Below, in pieces: positions 3,896-48,394 of a stretch of DNA of 64,000 bases. Within the stretch, counting starts at the first letter, position 1; the number at the start of each line of letters is the position of its first letter. The DNA lies in assembly GCF_003018115.1 (NCBI RefSeq), contig NZ_CP027457.1; one strand, written 5' to 3'. The notes under the pieces are model-generated. The model made no database searches and had not been told where the DNA came from. It saw only the letters and a program-made list of their open reading frames with translations. The translations under genes were made by a program, and so were the position numbers. Source of the stretch: Escherichia coli (GTDB lineage Bacteria > Pseudomonadota > Gammaproteobacteria > Enterobacterales > Enterobacteriaceae).

Positions 3896-11878
<7,983 letters not shown>

Positions 11879-20118: not shown

Positions 20119-20970
20119 TTAACCCGCGTAAGCTGCCAGCATTTCCTGCGCCGCCAGTTTACCCAACGCATTCGCTGCAAAAGGACTGTCGCCGGTGAAA
20201 AGTTTACGGTCCTTATGTACTCGCCCGGTGATGTCGTCATTAATGATGTTCATGCCCATTTTCTTCAGCTCTTCGCCGAAGTACCAGGTGAGATGACCCG
20301 GCATATAGCCAATCTCTGGCGTTTGTTTGTCTGCGGCGTCTGGGAATGCGCAAATGGAATAACCATTCAGTGGGTTATCGCCGTGGCGAAGCGCCAGAAA
20401 AGCCGCCGGGCCGTGGCAAAGGGAGATAACAAAACGGTCATTTTTGATTGCCCACTGTAAAGCGGCAGCTACGTCCTGGCTTTCAGGTAAACCAATAAGT
20501 GCGCCATGACCACCAGGAACAAAGATTGCTGCATATTCGCTATCAGCGTTGAGGCTGGCGACAACATCCGCGAGTTTCTTCGGATTGCGGAACAACGATT
20601 TATGCTGCTCAAAGAATGGCATTACTTTTTCATCTTTGTGCGGCATAGCCCAGTATTCAAACTTGGTCATCAGACCGGAAATGGTCGCCACTTCGAATTC
20701 GAAACCTGCAGCATGGAGATGATACAACGGCAGCAACGTTTCAATCGGATGGTTACCGGTCGAGAACAGCTTTCCGTTATCGGTCGGCAAATAACGTTCG
20801 TCCGCGGCGATCACCAGAATTTTATGTTTACCGCGATACGGTTTTGGATAGTCCACGCCATCAAGATCAGAGACAGGACTGGTATATTGGCTAAGCGAAT
20901 ATTCTGAAGGGAAGAATGCATTATCTTCAGCAATATCGACCTGCGGATTTTTACTTGTTTGAACAGTCAT
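20119..20970 (-). CDS. hchA: Hsp31 glyoxalase III / molecular chaperone (283 aa)
   Basis: DJ-1/PfpI family with catalytic Cys context (ISLCHGPAAFL); full-length agreement with recalled HchA. Confidence 0.9.
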   Translation of the reverse strand: MTVQTSKNPQVDIAEDNAFFPSEYSLSQYTSPVSDLDGVDYPKPYRGKHKILVIAADERYLPTDNGKLFSTGNHPIETLLPLYHLHAAGFEFEVATISGLMTKFEYWAMPHKDEKVMPFFEQHKSLFRNPKKLADVVASLNADSEYAAIFVPGGHGALIGLPESQDVAAALQWAIKNDRFVISLCHGPAAFLALRHGDNPLNGYSICAFPDAADKQTPEIGYMPGHLTWYFGEELKKMGMNIINDDITGRVHKDRKLFTGDSPFAANALGKLAAQEMLAAYAG

Positions 20971-21482
20971 AGTGTATTCCTTATTGTTGCTTAGTTAGGG
21001 TAGTCACTATATTTGCGACTGAGCTGGTCGCTATTTTTAACCAGGCTGGAAAATTGAGTCAATATATCGAAAGCGGTAGTCGGCGGGTGTAAGTATGTAA
21101 TGATGATGCTGCACTGGTGTTGAATATTATTCACGCCAAATTTTCCTTATTGAGCAACGTCGTCGCAAGTGGCCTCAATGATTTTAGACCATTATCAAAG
21201 GTACGGGGCGGCGGGGAGAGATTTAGTGCTGTGGAATATTGTGGTGCTGATGAATATTTATATCCCGGATTGGTAGAGAAAAAGCTTTTTCCATGCACTA
21301 TTTTTGCAAATATTTCTATATGGGAGGCGTGTTTGTTGCGGATTAATTCATAAAGAAATGTATTTGGAGTGTTGGCTGGAAGAGTAGCTGGTAGAAGATA
21401 TTGTGCCAGGAGGGGCAGGGTAAGGGGCTGTATCGATATGCATTGACAATTGCGTGTGCCGGAGATGGAGATGAAATGCCAA

Positions 21483-21519
21483 TAAAAAAGCCTGAGTTCG
21501 ATGAGGGACGAACTCAGGC
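21483..21519 (-). terminator. Rho-independent terminator downstream of yedS
   Basis: On the minus strand, GC-rich hairpin GCCTGAGTTCG...CGAACTCAGGC followed by a T-run, just past the yedS stop. Confidence 0.5.
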
Positions 21520-21562
21520 TAGTGTTCAGTTTTACAGTAACACGCCGCGGCGCGTTGACTGA

Positions 21563-22756
21563 TTAGAACTGGTAGACTAAGCCCACAGCAACGATATCAT
21601 CGGTAGCGATGCCGTTTGCTTCGTAGAAGTCATCGTCGTTGTCCAGCAGGTTGATTTTGTAATCAACATAGGTGGACATGTTTTTGTTGAAGTAGTAGGT
21701 CGCACCAATATCAACGTATTTAACCAGATCTTTATTGGTGTAACGTGGGTCGCCGTTGCCGTCATGAGCCCAACCGCCTAAATCCTTACCTTTAGATTGC
21801 AGGTAAGCGATGGACGGGCGCAGGCCAAAGTCGAACTGATACTGAGCAACAACTTCAAAGTTTTGGGTTTTGTTAGCGATGGCTGATCTTGATTCACCAT
21901 TATCAAACTCGCCACCACCATATGGGGTCATATTGCGAGTTTCAGCGTACATAGCTGCTAAATACACATTATTAGCATCATATTTTGCACCAACAGTCCA
22001 TGCTTCAGCGGTTTCACCACCAGCATTTCTGTTGCTATGGTTACGATCATTTAAACCAACTCCAACCTGACGATCTGAACGATCAGAGTTTGAATATGCA
22101 GCACCCAGACTTAAACCGAAGTCGAAGTCATAGGAAGTGGACATACCGAAACCATCACCATTTTCTTGAGCAATGTCCCGACCCTTACCCTTACCAGAAC
22201 CTTCCTGACCGAATGGACCACCGTTTTCGTTATTACTCTGATATTGCAGAGCAAAGTTCAGGCCATCGACCTGACCAAAGAAGCCATTGTTACGGTAGGT
22301 TGCAACACCATTAGCACGACCGTTCATGAAGTTGTCAGCGCCAGCATAGGTATCGCCACCAAATTCTGGCAGCATATCGGTCCATGCTTCTACGTCATAT
22401 ACGACACCGTAGTTACGACCATAGTCGAAAGTACCATTCTGACCAAAGCCTAAACCTGCAAATGCCAGACGCGTTGCAGTATTACCTTTGTCGCTTTCAG
22501 TACCGTTTGCGCCAATGTTAAATTCCCACTGACCGTAACCAGTGAATTGATCAGCGATCTGAGTTTCACCTTTGAAACCGATACGGGCATATGACATGTC
22601 GCCATCGCTGCCAGAATCATCAGAGAAGTAGTGCAGACCCACTACTTTTCCGTACAAATCCAGTTTATTACCATCTTTATTATAGACTTCAGCCGCATTT
22701 GCTGCGCCAGCAACTAATAACGCCGGGACCAGCATTGCCAGAACTTTTCTTTTCAT
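21563..22756 (-). CDS. yedS: General bacterial porin, OmpC/OmpF family, apparently intact (~397 aa)
   Basis: Signal peptide [21 protein letters not shown], porin N-terminal motif [16 protein letters not shown] and C-terminal ...[18 protein letters not shown] upstream of ATG at 22756. Confidence 0.8.
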
Positions 22757-23321
22757 TATGTATTCCCTTGTGATTATAATCTTCATGAATATATCAATAA
22801 GTGCCGTTATCCAAAAAAAGCACATTTGGATACTATTCTATGAAGTTCATTTTATTTTAAGGATTGCATGTAACAAATGTATTTAAAAGATTTCAAAATG
22901 TTTCTAATCTATTTAATATAATTCAGGATTATGAATTCTGAATATAAACATTCATGAAGATTATAAATGCATATCAATATGTTATGAGTTGAGCGGAAAC
23001 ATAGGGGGTATCAATGATTGTTGCGCCAAACGGCTGGTGTGATCAGGCGCACATTAATGAAGGCATAAAAAAAAGCCGGCATCATGCCGGCCCAAAAAAT
23101 ATAAACAAGACGATAAAAGGCTAATAACGGTAGCATCATGACACAGAATAATAAAAAGGTATAATTGTAATCAGTGCTAATATATTGATTAAATGAATTA
23201 ATAAAGCCGATATCAAAGATAAATAAAATCGCTCAAAACGATTTTTCCTGTATTCACTGCCGTTGCGCAAAATTTATCTATTTGTTCAAAAAATGATTGA
23301 GTCTTGACTGGCTCATCCAAT

Positions 23322-23687
23322 GTGGAAAAATGTGACTTTTATCACATAATAGTACTAAGTCTGAATTTTCCGGGTTATCTCAAAATGGAATACGGTTCGA
23401 CAAAGATGGAAGAGAGACTCTCTCGCAGCCCTGGCGGCAAACTGGCTTTGTGGGCTTTCTATACATGGTGTGGCTATTTCGTCTGGGCAATGGCGCGTTA
23501 CATCTGGGTGATGAGCCGGATCCCCGATGCCCCCGTGTCGGGATTTGAAAGCGATTTAGGCTCTACCGCGGGAAAGTGGTTAGGGGCACTGGTCGGATTT
23601 TTATTTATGGCTCTGGTCGGGGCATTGTTAGGCAGCATTGCCTGGTACACCCGACCTCGTCCCGCACGTAGCAGACGCTATGAATAA
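23322..23687 (+). CDS. yedR: Small inner-membrane protein (two predicted TM helices)
   Basis: ORF ending ...LGSIAWYTRPRPARSRRYE; the exact start is uncertain (GTG at 23322, TTG at 23304 or ATG at 23385). Confidence 0.55.
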   Translation: MEKCDFYHIIVLSLNFPGYLKMEYGSTKMEERLSRSPGGKLALWAFYTWCGYFVWAMARYIWVMSRIPDAPVSGFESDLGSTAGKWLGALVGFLFMALVGALLGSIAWYTRPRPARSRRYE

Positions 23688-44106: not shown

Positions 44107-44439
44107 GTTTTGTAACCTGTTGTTGATTACATCCGATCTCACCGCGTGGGGCATGGATGGGGCAAATTCACTCATTTTCTGGTTTAAAATGGATACCTGA
44201 TCCTGAAAGTTTTCTGCCATCCACGATCTGTATACGCGATAACATGTTTTGTCTTCGCTTTGCTCATAGGAAGAGTGAACTCTTTTGTTAGCCTGGGGTT
44301 CCTTCTGATCATTATTGTTCCTGCCTTTATCTCTTGCCACGCCAGAGCCCCCTGGATACACATACACCAGGATGAAAACGGTGAGTTGTGTTCAAACTGT
44401 AGTACAATTCTCTCCAGTATGAACAGGAAAGAATATGCT

Positions 44440-44772
44440 ATGAACCCTTATATTTATCTTGGTGGCGCAATACTTGCAGAGGTCATTGGTACAACCTTAA
44501 TGAAGTTTTCAGAGGGGTTTACACGGTTATGGCCCTCTGTTGGCACAATTATTTGCTATTGTGCATCATTCTGGTTATTAGCTCAGACACTGGCTTATAT
44601 ACCTACAGGGATTGCTTATGCTATCTGGTCAGGAGTCGGTATCGTTCTGATTAGTTTGCTTTCCTGGGGATTTTTTGGTCAACGACTGGACCTGCCAGCC
44701 ATCATAGGCATGATGTTGATTTGTGCCGGTGTGTTAGTCATTAACTTGTTGTCACGAAGTGCACCGCATTAA
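44440..44772 (+). CDS. emrE: SMR-family multidrug efflux transporter (EmrE-like, 110 aa)
   Basis: Sequence MNPYIYLGGAILAEVIGTTLMKFSEGFTRLW... with the conserved membrane-embedded Glu (AEV); near-identical to my recollection of K-12 EmrE. Track ORF is over-extended upstream. Confidence 0.8.
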   Translation: MNPYIYLGGAILAEVIGTTLMKFSEGFTRLWPSVGTIICYCASFWLLAQTLAYIPTGIAYAIWSGVGIVLISLLSWGFFGQRLDLPAIIGMMLICAGVLVINLLSRSAPH

Positions 44773-44940
44773 AAAATAATCATCCTTGAGATAACAGGAA
44801 TCTGATTTGTGCATATTATGGCTAATGTTCGGGGCAACTTTATAATTATGATTGCATTTGCGCGATCATTGCGCCTTTTTGCATAATGAGATCAAGGCAC
44901 ATCAAATAAAATAACGATAGGTCACAACAAAGAGGTTTTT

Positions 44941-45492
44941 ATGAAAAAACTTATCGTTTCAAGTGTATTGGCATTCATAACATTTTCTGCGCAGGCCGCA
45001 GCATTTCAGGTCACTAGTAATGAAATAAAAACAGGAGAGCAACTTACAACGTCTCATGTATTTTCTGGATTTGGGTGTGAGGGGGGTAATACATCGCCCT
45101 CATTAACCTGGTCTGGTGCTCCAGAAGGCACCAAAAGCTTTGCCGTAACTGTGTATGATCCAGATGCGCCTACAGGCAGTGGATGGTGGCACTGGACTGT
45201 TGCTAATATTCCAGCAACGGTAACATATTTGCCCGCTGATGCAGGAAGACGTGATGGTACAAAACTTCCGACTGGTGCTGTCCAAGGCCGAAATGATTTT
45301 GGCTATGCGGGATTTGGTGGAGCATGTCCTCCCAAAGGAGATAAACCCCATCATTACCAGTTTAAAATATGGGCTCTAAAAACTGATAAGATTCCTGTGG
45401 ATTCTAATTCCAGCGGAGCGTTAGTTGGTTATATGCTTAATGCCAATAAAATTGCAACCGCTGAGATAACACCCGTTTATGAGGTAAAGTAG
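44941..45492 (+). CDS. Periplasmic PEBP/RKIP-family protein (YbcL-like, 183 aa)
   Basis: Signal peptide MKKLIVSSVLAFITFSAQA and PEBP core (DPDAP...HHY); resembles the DLP12-encoded YbcL. Confidence 0.75.
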   Translation: MKKLIVSSVLAFITFSAQAAAFQVTSNEIKTGEQLTTSHVFSGFGCEGGNTSPSLTWSGAPEGTKSFAVTVYDPDAPTGSGWWHWTVANIPATVTYLPADAGRRDGTKLPTGAVQGRNDFGYAGFGGACPPKGDKPHHYQFKIWALKTDKIPVDSNSSGALVGYMLNANKIATAEITPVYEVK

Positions 45493-45501
45493 GATAAGAG
45501 T

Positions 45502-46299
45502 ATGCTGGCAAAAGATAGGACTAACCTAAAGATTGAAGAAATACGGATGCATAAACATCATGAGATTCACAGGGTTAAGCCTCTTATGCCAGCTTTATGT
45601 CGTATCCGTCAGGGAAAAAAAGTTATCAATTGGGAGACGCATAGTCTAACTGTTGATAATAATCAGATAATATTATTTCCCTGTGGATATGAATTTTATA
45701 TTGCGAATTACCCAGAAGCAGGTCTTTATCTTGCAGAAATGCTTTATTATCCCATTGATCTAATTGAAAAGTTCCAAAATCTTTATGCGATAACCGATCA
45801 AATTCGTAACACGACAGGTTTCTGCTTACCTCAGAATCCCGAGTTAATATATTGTTGGGAGCAACTAAAAACATCTATTTCCCGAGGCTTCTCAACGCAA
45901 ATTCAGGAACACTTAGCAATGGGCGTTCTACTTTCATTAGGAGCACATCATGTTAATTGTTTACTTTTATCAGATAGTAAACAATCATTAATAAGTCGTT
46001 GTTATAACCTAATGCTATCCGAACCTGGAACAAAATGGACAGCAAACAAGGTAGCGAGATATCTCTACATTTCTGTTTCCACATTGCATCGCCGTCTGGC
46101 AAGCGAGGGAGTAAGTTTTCAAAGTATATTGGACGACGTGAGGTTAAATAATGCGTTGTCTGCTATACAAACGACAGTAAAACCCATCAGCGAGATTGCC
46201 AGAGAAAGTGGTTACAAGTGTCCTTCTCGTTTTACTGAAAGGTTCCATAATCGTTTTAAGATAACACCAAGAGAGCTAAGAAAAGCGTCCAGAGAGTAA
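45502..46299 (+). CDS. AraC/XylS-family transcriptional regulator (YbcM-like, 265 aa)
   Basis: C-terminal AraC-type HTH (...[30 protein letters not shown]); AGGA RBS 9 nt upstream; starts 10 bp after the PEBP gene stop (operon-like). Confidence 0.7.
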
Positions 46300-46800
46300 A
46301 AGTATTTTATGAAGGAGCAACAGCATCGATTTTTATTTTGGAAAATAAATACGGCATACTCAACCTATTGGAGCCTGAACAATCCGGTGACTTCTGCGCT
46401 AATCGGGGACGTTTATAAGCACATATAATTGATACTATCTTCCTCCATCACAATTTCAGAAATGCACGTGTGATTTTTTTGCATCCGGCGTTTGGACTAT
46501 GTGGAGTTCAAGAGTGGGAAAGTTACAAGAGGTTGAGGGGATAATTAAAGGGATGCTTATGACATTAGATATCCGGTTAGGTACGGATATCGTTGTTATT
46601 AAATCTAATTGATACGTTAATTGTTCACTGAGTATTATTAAAAATGGGGCGTTGAAACGCCCCAGAAAATAAAGGGTAATATATAACAGAAGGTTTATAT
46701 AGTCAGAAGCAAGATAGTGCTTCTAAGGAAAGTGGTTTGAGGGCGCCACTTATATGTTGGGGAGGCAAAGCCTCCCACAACATATCTTTGAGTAATCAGA

Positions 46801-47883
46801 TTAGAACTGGTAAACCAATCCTACAGCAACGATATCATCGGTAGCAACGCCAGATGCTTTCGTGAAATCGCTCTTATCAATCAGGTTGATTTTGTAATCA
46901 ACAAAAGTGGACATATTTTTGTTGAAGTAATAGGTTGCACCTACATCAATATATTCAACCAGGTCCTGATCACCCCACGCACCCAAGTCTTTTCCTTTAG
47001 ATTGCAGGTAAGCAACGGACGGACGCAGACCGAAGTCGAACTGATATTGTGCAACTACTTCAAAGTTTTGTGCTTTGTTGGCAATATGGTTATTACCAAA
47101 AACAGTCATGTTCTGGGTTTCAGAATAGGTGGTAGCCAGATAGATGTTGTTCGCATCATATTTCAGACCAGCTGCCCATACTTCAGCATTTTGACCAGAT
47201 GCATTCAGGCTGTTGTTACCGTAGATAACCTGATCATTAGTGCGGTCAGATTTAGCATAGGTTGCACCTACACCGAATCCTTCATACTCATAAGTAGTGG
47301 AGAAACCGAAACCATCACCGTTAGCTTCAGTTACGTCAGTGCGGTCATTTTTACCCTGATACTGAGCAGCAAAGTTCAGACCATCAACCAGACCAAAGAA
47401 GTCGTTGTTACGATAAGTTGCAACACCTGTGGTGCGACCAGTCATGAACACATCTGTTTGGGTCCAGGTATCGCCACCGAATTCTGGCAGAACGTCGGTC
47501 CATGCACCGATATCGTATGCTACACCGTAGTTACGGCCATAATCGATGGAGCCGTAGTCACCGAATTTCAGGCCAGCGAAGGCAAGACGGGTTTTATCTT
47601 TGGAAGAACCTTGAGATTCAGCACGGTTGCCTTTGAATTCATATTCCCACTGACCGAAACCAGTCAGTTGATCGTTGATTTGAGTTTCGCCTTTGAAGCC
47701 CAGACGAACATAAGTTGTGTCGCCATCATCTGCATCGTTAGAAGAGAAGTAGTGCTTAGCATTAACTTTTCCGTACAGATCCAGCTTGTTACTGTCTTTA
47801 TTGTAAATCTCTGCTGCCTGAGCAGACATCGCCATCAGTACTGATGCAGCTACAGCAGAAATTGCCACTGTTAATTTTTTCAT
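46801..47883 (-). CDS. General bacterial porin, OmpC/OmpF family, NmpC/Lc-like (360 aa)
   Basis: Signal peptide [23 protein letters not shown], motif [17 protein letters not shown]-terminal ...[10 protein letters not shown]-terminus matches my recollection of NmpC-type porins. Confidence 0.8.
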
Positions 47884-48394
47884 CGTGAGCCCTTTTATTT
47901 GAACTATTATTTAAAAATGATGTCACTGCACCACAAATATTCATCTAATCAATGAGATTATTTCAAGATGTAAGTTTTAGTTTCTCATTTAAATTGTGAA
48001 GTAGATCCCTATTTTTATCTGAACTGTTTCTATTGCACACAATGCATGACTATTTTGTGAACGAATATAAATTTGGTAGTCAAATTATATTAAAGGTTGT
48101 TATTTATGATTGACTCATAATTTATTTTTTTAATTTAAATAGCCTGAAAATAACTATAGAAATTATTTGTATGATATTTGTTTAGATTTATTAATGTAAT
48201 TTAGGTGGTTTTATTTAATACGCAATATAGCGCCGCTTGATATTAGTTCTATTTTTTTGCGTAAGATAGATGAGACAAAACTGAGACGCATAATGGTTTG
48301 CAAGGCTCTAATACTTTGATGTTGAGGATGTGATGGGGCATGTACGGGCATAGTACAATGATGTCCATGCAGGTGTAGATAATCTCCAGGCTTA

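Follow-up and report, generated by a model that had tools for sequence, protein, structure and literature searches.

An intact yedS porin gene in a non-K-12 Escherichia coli genome and its relation to the K-12 pseudogene

Results

Genes and signals at the yedS locus

The window analysed here is a single stretch of Escherichia coli DNA of 64,000 nucleotides. Between hchA and drpB (yedR), the two neighbours already named in the initial annotation, it carries the porin gene yedS, which lies on the minus strand (no strand had been given before). The features of the locus are collected in Table 1. Re-translation of the minus strand over the interval gives 397 sense codons followed by a terminal TAA, with zero internal stops or frameshifts; the earlier claim of a continuous 397-codon porin open reading frame is thus right in coordinates and codon count, and the intactness of the gene stands. 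The deduced protein ends in ...AVGLVYQF, directly followed by the stop. The longest mechanically derived reading frame reaches further 5', to an ATG at 22825 (420 aa). We place the start at the ATG at 22756, because all homologues begin with MKRKV, encoded from that position, and because the motif AAGGGA is found 8–13 nt 5' of that ATG.

The signal peptide, ribosome-binding site and terminator that had been proposed for the gene were all recovered, as an OmpC-like signal, the AAGGGA motif and a hairpin followed by a T-run, respectively. Besides the alignment, the signal peptide is supported by the mature chains of PDB entries, which start at query residue 21–22, and by the N-terminal helix (residues 3–18) of an AlphaFold2 (AF2) model. 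Terminator-like sites in the region numbered 6, against 1.8 ± 1.3 in shuffled sequences.

Table 1 Features of the yedS locus in window coordinates
Feature	Position	Strand	Basis or remark
hchA (glyoxalase III / Hsp31), downstream neighbour of yedS	20119..20970	-	
Intrinsic terminator (stem of 12 bp with 7 G-C pairs, loop of 8 nt, T-run)	21482..21520	-	Hairpin with T-run at 21520-21489, 43 nt past the yedS stop
yedS CDS, 397 codons + TAA, intact class-I (K-12-type, OmpS1-named) allele	21563..22756	-	Translation, Porin_1, K-12 alignment, identity to WP_001613326.1
Gene nt 663, frameshifted in K-12: T in the window, deleted in MG1655	22094	-	Alignment
Mosaic segment coding for extracellular loop L4 (nt 484-630 of the gene; residues 162-210)	22127..22273	-	K-12 alignment and AF2
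Gene nt 484, nonsense mutation in K-12: CAG in the window, TAG in MG1655	22273	-	Alignment
Signal peptide codons 1-21, cleavage before AEVYNK	22694..22756	-	Alignment with K-12 OmpC precursor
Shine-Dalgarno AAGGGA, 8-13 nt 5' of the ATG	22764..22769	-	Sequence reading; spacing as at the ompF start GAGGGTAATAAATAATG
AT-rich rseX-yedS spacer, presumed promoter and 5' UTR, likely H-NS target	22757..23067	-	G+C 30% vs 49% for the window
rseX, gene of an Hfq-binding sRNA that represses ompA/ompC	23068..23157	-	Full-length match to Rfam RF01401 with 98 bits (gathering score 50)
drpB (yedR), upstream of yedS and divergent from it	23406..23687	+	

Protein family, predicted fold and selection

YedS matches the Pfam family PF00267 (Porin_1) with 477 bits (E = 5e-143), over profile positions 1–337 of 337 and residues 27–397. 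Its best solved relatives are OmpK37 (6v78; 495 bits), OmpK36 (~444), OmpC (414–421), PhoE (393) and OmpF (384), and global identity to the K-12 paralogues amounts to 73% for OmpN, 66% for OmpC and 64% for both OmpF and PhoE. The protein has a cleavable Sec signal peptide close to that of OmpC and a C-terminal Phe, as in the β-signal recognised by BAM. Its extra length compared with OmpC and OmpF (397 aa vs 351–377 aa for these two, OmpN and PhoE) consists of insertions in loops L4–L7.

In the AF2 model (53 homologues; mean pLDDT 79.6, pTM 0.78), YedS is predicted to form a barrel of 16 strands, the last of which is completed by an N-terminal piece (residues 23–25). The model has long extracellular loops, with L4 and L6 at low confidence, and an L3 segment (residues 117–146) containing a short helix. 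Foldseek superposition on OmpK37, OmpK36, OmpC and OmpF gave TM-scores of 0.91–0.95, normalised to target length. All six OmpF eyelet residues are kept: K16, R42, R82, R132, D113 and E117 correspond to K37, R58, R96, R147, D127 and E131 of YedS. Moreover, the PEFGG motif of loop L3 is present (LPEFGGD, residues 129–135). In all these respects YedS is a complete general porin of the classical kind.

When yedS is compared with a second class-I allele of E. coli, the dN/dS ratio is 0.16, and with the orthologues of E. albertii, of three Citrobacter species and of Superficieibacter it is 0.085–0.11; judged by these values (0.09–0.16), yedS is kept under purifying selection. The initial annotation spoke of an 'extra functional porin', a wording that can be upheld at sequence level for coding capacity and selective constraint, and is to be narrowed to these two.

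The K-12 allele and its lesions

The K-12 counterpart is yedS b4496 at the same locus (drpB-rseX-yedS-hchA), with which the window gene shares 97.5% nucleotide identity over 1194 nt. In NC_000913.3, b4496 is annotated as a pseudogene of 1193 nt (2034051–2035243) between rseX/drpB and hchA; earlier names were b1964–b1966 and yedS_1/2/3. Two lesions account for this state: C484T turns CAG (Gln162) into TAG at codon 162, and one T is deleted at nt 663 (codon 221). The earlier statement that yedS is fragmented in MG1655 thus proved correct, and the alignment places both disabling changes in K-12 and neither in the window. An O16:H48 strain has the same sequence as b4496, and PGAP flags that copy as 'frameshifted; internal stop'.

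Differences between the two alleles are far from evenly spread. About 27 of the ~31 fall within nt 484–630, where the window and K-12 are ~85% identical and encode different variants of L4, while the 5' 483 nt hold four and the 3' 531 nt are identical. Since the rest of the gene is nearly the same in both, this clustering points to a recombined segment and not to uniform divergence. In the AF2 model, L4 lies between strands 166–173 and 202–210, with pLDDT below 50 at 177–192. Isolate MLI106K2 carries the K-12-type loop segment inside an intact yedS. The whole drpB–hchA interval, upstream region included, is 97.4% identical to K-12 with three gaps only.

As to the order of the two lesions, the chicken isolate L9 has the 1-nt deletion and no TAG, which suggests that the K-12 frameshift arose before the nonsense mutation.

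Occurrence of yedS in other Escherichia coli genomes

The window is not K-12 DNA: over 35.6 kb of co-linear sequence, it differs from MG1655 at 450 positions (98.7% identity). Among complete genomes, chicken isolate 2824 comes nearest over a 21-kb stretch (99.6%, vs 98.8% for K-12 strains). Of 60 rows sampled at even spacing from the 890 matching genomes, ~24 had the K-12 segment with both lesions at 100% identity, which corresponds to ~360 genomes; at an identity of at least 99%, the segment occurs in 388 of 5426 complete genomes. Nearly all sampled carriers were laboratory K-12 derivatives (DH5alpha, W3110, MC4100, J53, EPI300). Both the divergence from MG1655 and the near confinement of the double lesion to K-12 derivatives support the view that the intact gene marks the sequence as non-K-12.

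Intact copies elsewhere in the species, likewise mentioned in the initial annotation, are borne out by the collections. RefSeq contains identical or near-identical intact coding sequences in strains PD4, 2824 and MLI106K2; one independent complete genome carries the identical gene (100%), and two hold identical protein accessions. Hundreds of intact YedS proteins of 395–397 aa are present in the protein collection, one of them identical to that of the window. Intact yedS is common in natural E. coli isolates, and this is already known. Among the 5426 complete E. coli genomes, class-I yedS covering at least 80% of the query was detected in 1661; its identity ranges from 84% to 100% and is at least 99% in only four. 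The L4 segment of the window is present at an identity of at least 99% in only ten genomes. These counts and those for the K-12 segment are approximate, as they derive from identity bands and sampled rows.

A further difference from K-12 is located between fliE and yedK, where the window has 4.1 kb (44243–48379) that are absent from K-12. Besides EmrE, YbcL and a YbcM of the AraC type, this block encodes a second intact porin (360 aa; 46801–47883, minus strand), and it occurs in 929 of the 5426 genomes. Within 64 kb the strain accordingly has two porin genes of which K-12 has no working copy.

Two porin classes at the same locus

Many other E. coli genomes have a very different porin in the yedS slot, e.g., one of 371 aa in JJ1887 (ST131) and one of 357 aa in an O157:H16 strain. 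These class-II proteins are 61–62% identical to YedS of the window. In a neighbour-joining tree they fall outside the yedS clade and nearer to OmpF and PhoE. Relatives of them occur in E. fergusonii, Citrobacter, Enterobacter, Leclercia and Klebsiella oxytoca. Both classes share the same signal peptide and the same translation-start region (20 nt before the ATG were examined). The two classes cannot be aligned over the 380 nt in the middle of the gene; their flanking DNA is ~85% identical. Within YedS, loops L4–L7 vary among strains.

The divergence of the class-I and class-II proteins (~61% identity) is as large as that of OmpC and OmpF. A tentative explanation, which we regard as possible and somewhat doubtful, is that the locus holds an old, maintained polymorphism of two classes, accompanied by shuffling of loops within class I through recombination. 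Such a pattern would be compatible with phages, colicins or antibodies selecting for diversity in a porin that cells make in the host but not in culture; on this view, the lesions of K-12 would represent a loss confined to its lineage. The two-class, loop-mosaic polymorphism may already be known to population genomicists.

Synteny, orthologues and origin

In the window, yedS is located downstream of dcm-yedJ as well as of drpB and rseX. Porin genes with dcm-yedJ-(drpB) directly upstream were found in E. albertii (87% identity), Citrobacter (75–83%), Superficieibacter (78%), Kluyvera, Klebsiella pneumoniae and Enterobacter, in a scan of one genome per species. In a rough neighbour-joining distance tree, computed without support values, YedS clusters with the syntenic porins of E. 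albertii, Citrobacter, Superficieibacter, Kluyvera and K. pneumoniae, and is separate from the ompN-, ompC- and ompF-syntenic groups. The syntenic K. pneumoniae porin scores 532 bits against 6v78, being related to that protein and not the same. Because dcm-yedJ-(drpB)-linked porins recur across genera, the yedS locus is old in Enterobacteriaceae. PMC8313858, citing Douchin et al. 2006, suggests a recent acquisition from Salmonella; the synteny argues against such an origin.

The connection to Salmonella is also one of nomenclature. The database name of YedS-type proteins is 'outer membrane protein S1', and the gene is listed as 'yedS (ompS1)' in PMC2731931. The scan of one genome per species detected no Salmonella locus with dcm-yedJ flanks, and the sole Salmonella match (66% identity) had other neighbours.

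Upstream region and regulation

The sRNA gene rseX is situated 311 nt upstream of yedS on the same strand, in the same position as in MG1655. An sRNA gene thereby adjoins a porin gene, as in the pairs micF-ompC and micC-ompN. In the spacer, two weak σ70-like matches were noted (22942–22915 and 22876–22849, minus strand); the promoter scan upstream of yedS returned 8 sites, compared with 7.5 ± 3.2 in shuffles, and gave no convincing promoter.

Published findings on regulation are in line with a low level of expression. According to PMC8313858, RseX is undetectable in the wild type and strongly induced in hns stpA mutants. The K-12 yedS transcript decreased 2.5-fold on induction of σE, similarly to ompC, ompF, ompN and phoE (PMC2731931). 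In Salmonella, ompS1 is characterised as quiescent in PMC4264507: H-NS/StpA silence this porin gene, and LeuO activates it. By analogy, and because the upstream DNA has a G+C content of 30% and the adjacent rseX is silenced by H-NS/StpA, yedS of the window is probably weakly or conditionally expressed, i.e., a 'quiescent' porin gene.

The clinical isolate of the 2013 study taken up in the Discussion, which had neither OmpC nor OmpF, reportedly expressed functional YedS, and this YedS is said to be controlled by MarA through MicF. As a control, the 5' seed of MicF (nt 1–33) was paired with the ompF start, giving -27.1 kcal/mol (z = -5). With the yedS translation start, the same seed reached -7.7 kcal/mol, which is worse than shuffles, and a seed scan of the 311-nt upstream region and the coding sequence yielded no strong 5' UTR site. 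Duplex folding with full-length MicF had no power, as even the ompF positive control had only z = -1.5. A direct, ompF-like MicF site in the window allele was rejected, seed pairing being worse than in shuffles. Any effect of MicF on this allele would, from the pairing calculations, be indirect or non-canonical, since no ompF-like site was found. Pairing of RseX and of MicC with the yedS 5' region was not significant for either sRNA.

Discussion

An intact, probably quiescent general porin gene

Altogether, we interpret the gene as an intact yedS allele that encodes a classical general diffusion porin of the OmpC/OmpF type and is probably poorly expressed under standard conditions, a reading to which we assign a probability of roughly 0.88. 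After Sec export, the precursor would be cleaved at ANA|AE, leaving a mature protein of ~376 residues, which BAM would insert through the C-terminal ...VYQF as a 16-strand β-barrel. Trimers would be expected by analogy with the relatives. Loop L3 with its PEFGG motif, folded into the lumen, and the residues K37, R58, R96, R147, D127 and E131 would build a charged constriction that may let small hydrophilic solutes pass, β-lactams included. The gene would be kept quiet behind the region of 30% G+C beside the silenced rseX. Its role would come mainly with the loss of OmpC and OmpF or with relieved silencing, when YedS could offer an alternative entry for nutrients and carbapenems.

The most serious competitor, which we nevertheless consider unlikely, is that the gene is intact only in looks and belongs to a dead or dying locus, inactivated outside the reading frame by a promoter lesion or within it by a disabling missense change, so that the cell would gain no porin from it. 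Decay of the locus has indeed occurred repeatedly in E. coli: besides the nonsense mutation with frameshift in K-12 and the frameshift alone in L9, strain 2018-06-4CC has a deletion of the 3' part of yedS that also removes hchA, and the O157:H16 strain has an IS1 insertion and a truncated hchA beside its porin gene. The promoter scan, being no better than shuffles, also leans this way. However, the low dN/dS holds across species and within E. coli, all pore-lining and assembly features are conserved, the drpB–hchA interval departs from K-12 in no more than three gaps at 97.4% identity, and identical intact alleles exist in independent strains.

Names in the databases raise another reading, by which the gene would be ompC proper, either the major osmoporin of the strain or a duplicate of it. 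PGAP/RefSeq labels the identical protein WP_001613326.1 'ompC: porin OmpC', and YedS scores 537.6 with NF007841, the OmpC model of NCBIfam, for which 484 is the cut-off. That model is of the subfamily type and not an equivalog, which explains the RefSeq label, and the NmpC-like porin at 46801–47883, though unrelated, matches it as well. Moreover, identity is only 66% to K-12 OmpC and 73% to OmpN, the locus is drpB-rseX/hchA and not micF-rcsD/ftp, and YedS stands outside the clade of ompC-syntenic porins. On synteny, identity and tree position we rejected the OmpC identity, which is very improbable. That the long reading frame is a product of chance or an assembly artefact has no observation in its favour and is scarcely credible in view of the Porin_1 E-value (5e-143), the 100% identical gene in an independent complete genome and the identical protein in the public collection.

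Implications

The intact yedS identifies the strain as other than K-12 and brings its general-porin genes to five or six. If translated, YedS could keep the entry of β-lactams and carbapenems open after loss of OmpC and OmpF, and genotype-based prediction of resistance should therefore count yedS. The RefSeq label 'ompC' is an annotation trap, as automated calls of porin loss could confuse yedS and ompC, in either direction. The practical value is modest, the intactness of yedS outside K-12 and the link to carbapenems having been published since 2013.

Comparison with known porin systems

The closest solved structure is that of OmpK37 of K. pneumoniae (6v78), with 65% identity in the structural alignment and a TM-score of 0.91 on target length. 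It is, like YedS, a minor porin with long loops, from which YedS differs by insertions in L5, L6 and L7. With OmpN, OmpC, OmpF and PhoE, YedS has in common the family, fold, constriction residues and type of signal peptide, but it occupies another locus and has longer loops L4–L7. Salmonella OmpS1 has been equated with YedS through database names and PMC2731931, that is, by name; both are minor porins, and the gene of each is preceded by AT-rich regulatory DNA; activation by OmpR as well is a feature of the Salmonella gene.

The association of YedS with carbapenem permeability, to which the initial annotation alluded, was published in 2013 (Warner et al., AAC 57:1935), a study cited for YedS and carbapenem resistance in PMC4048246 and PMC11267920. 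The clinical YedS of Warner et al. 2013 was reportedly, like the one described here, intact, translatable and non-K-12, and in cells without OmpC and OmpF it is reported to affect susceptibility to carbapenems. Our MicF pairing result has no bearing on the passage of carbapenems through YedS. The clinical YedS is reportedly regulated by MicF, whereas the window allele is without an ompF-like MicF pairing site.

Mosaic alleles and decay of yedS

The yedS alleles are mosaics. Approximately 27 differences distinguish the window gene from K-12 within the segment 22127-22273 (gene nt 484-630, loop L4), and outside nt 484-630 the two sequences are equal. The opposite pattern relative to K-12, inside and outside of this segment, was found in MLI106K2, a natural isolate with an intact yedS. 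Only 10 of the 5426 complete E. coli genomes searched have the L4 variant of the window at an identity of at least 99%.

The yedS copy of E. coli L9 (chicken, China) shares with K-12 the loss of 1 nt at nt 663 but not the nonsense mutation, codon 162 being CAG and not TAG. This suggests that in the K-12 lineage the frameshift is older than the nonsense mutation, or else that the allele has been exchanged.

Other porins and non-K-12 regions

In other E. coli, the drpB-hchA slot is occupied by porins of a second class, which has diverged deeply. These proteins, with lengths of 357-371 aa, are 61-62% identical to the window YedS and were placed outside the yedS clade, closer to OmpF and PhoE. The genes of both classes have matching translation-start regions and signal peptides, and the DNA flanking the second-class porin is about 85% identical to the window flanks. 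The best match to the window yedS has only 60-80% identity in 3039 of the 5426 genomes.

Additionally, a 4.1-kb block (44243-48379) absent from K-12 is located between fliE and yedK and encodes a second, intact general porin. It was identified in 929 of the 5426 genomes (coverage of at least 80%); at this position K-12 has remnants of the pseudogenes yedN and intG instead. Both the window YedS and the block porin, neither of which is OmpC, were named ‘ompC: porin OmpC’ by PGAP (RefSeq NZ_CP074007.1, NZ_CM128562.1), because their scores with the NCBIfam subfamily model NF007841 (537.6 and 520.8, respectively) exceed its cut-off of 484. Such mislabelling could mislead analyses that infer from genome data whether a strain has ompC or has lost it.

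The stretch 7786-8670, part of the gene for a large Ig-like adhesin (K-12 yeeJ), aligns with K-12 only as repeated segments of 85-88% identity, which indicates that the adhesin repeats differ in number or sequence between the window and K-12.

Features of the yedS locus, the 4.1-kb block and the comparison loci
Feature	Location	Strand	Remark
yedS	21563-22756	minus	window, intact
rseX (sRNA)	23068-23157	minus	directly upstream of yedS
EmrE	44440-44772		4.1-kb block
YbcL	44941-45492		4.1-kb block
YbcM	45502-46299		4.1-kb block, AraC-type
Second general porin	46801-47883	minus	4.1-kb block, 360 aa, PGAP label ‘OmpC’
Second-class porin	L004:4001-5116		JJ1887
Second-class porin	L005:4001-5074		O157:H16
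yedS copy	L010:732-1924		E. coli L9
Syntenic porin	L035:6001-7143		K. pneumoniae ATCC 13883, downstream of dcm-yedJ-drpB

Comparison with known porin loci

The K. pneumoniae porin gene syntenic with yedS encodes a protein related (532 bits), but not identical, to the crystallised OmpK37. The rseX-yedS arrangement has parallels in MG1655, where micF adjoins ompC and micC adjoins ompN; in all three pairs, therefore, the porin gene adjoins a gene for a porin-regulating sRNA.
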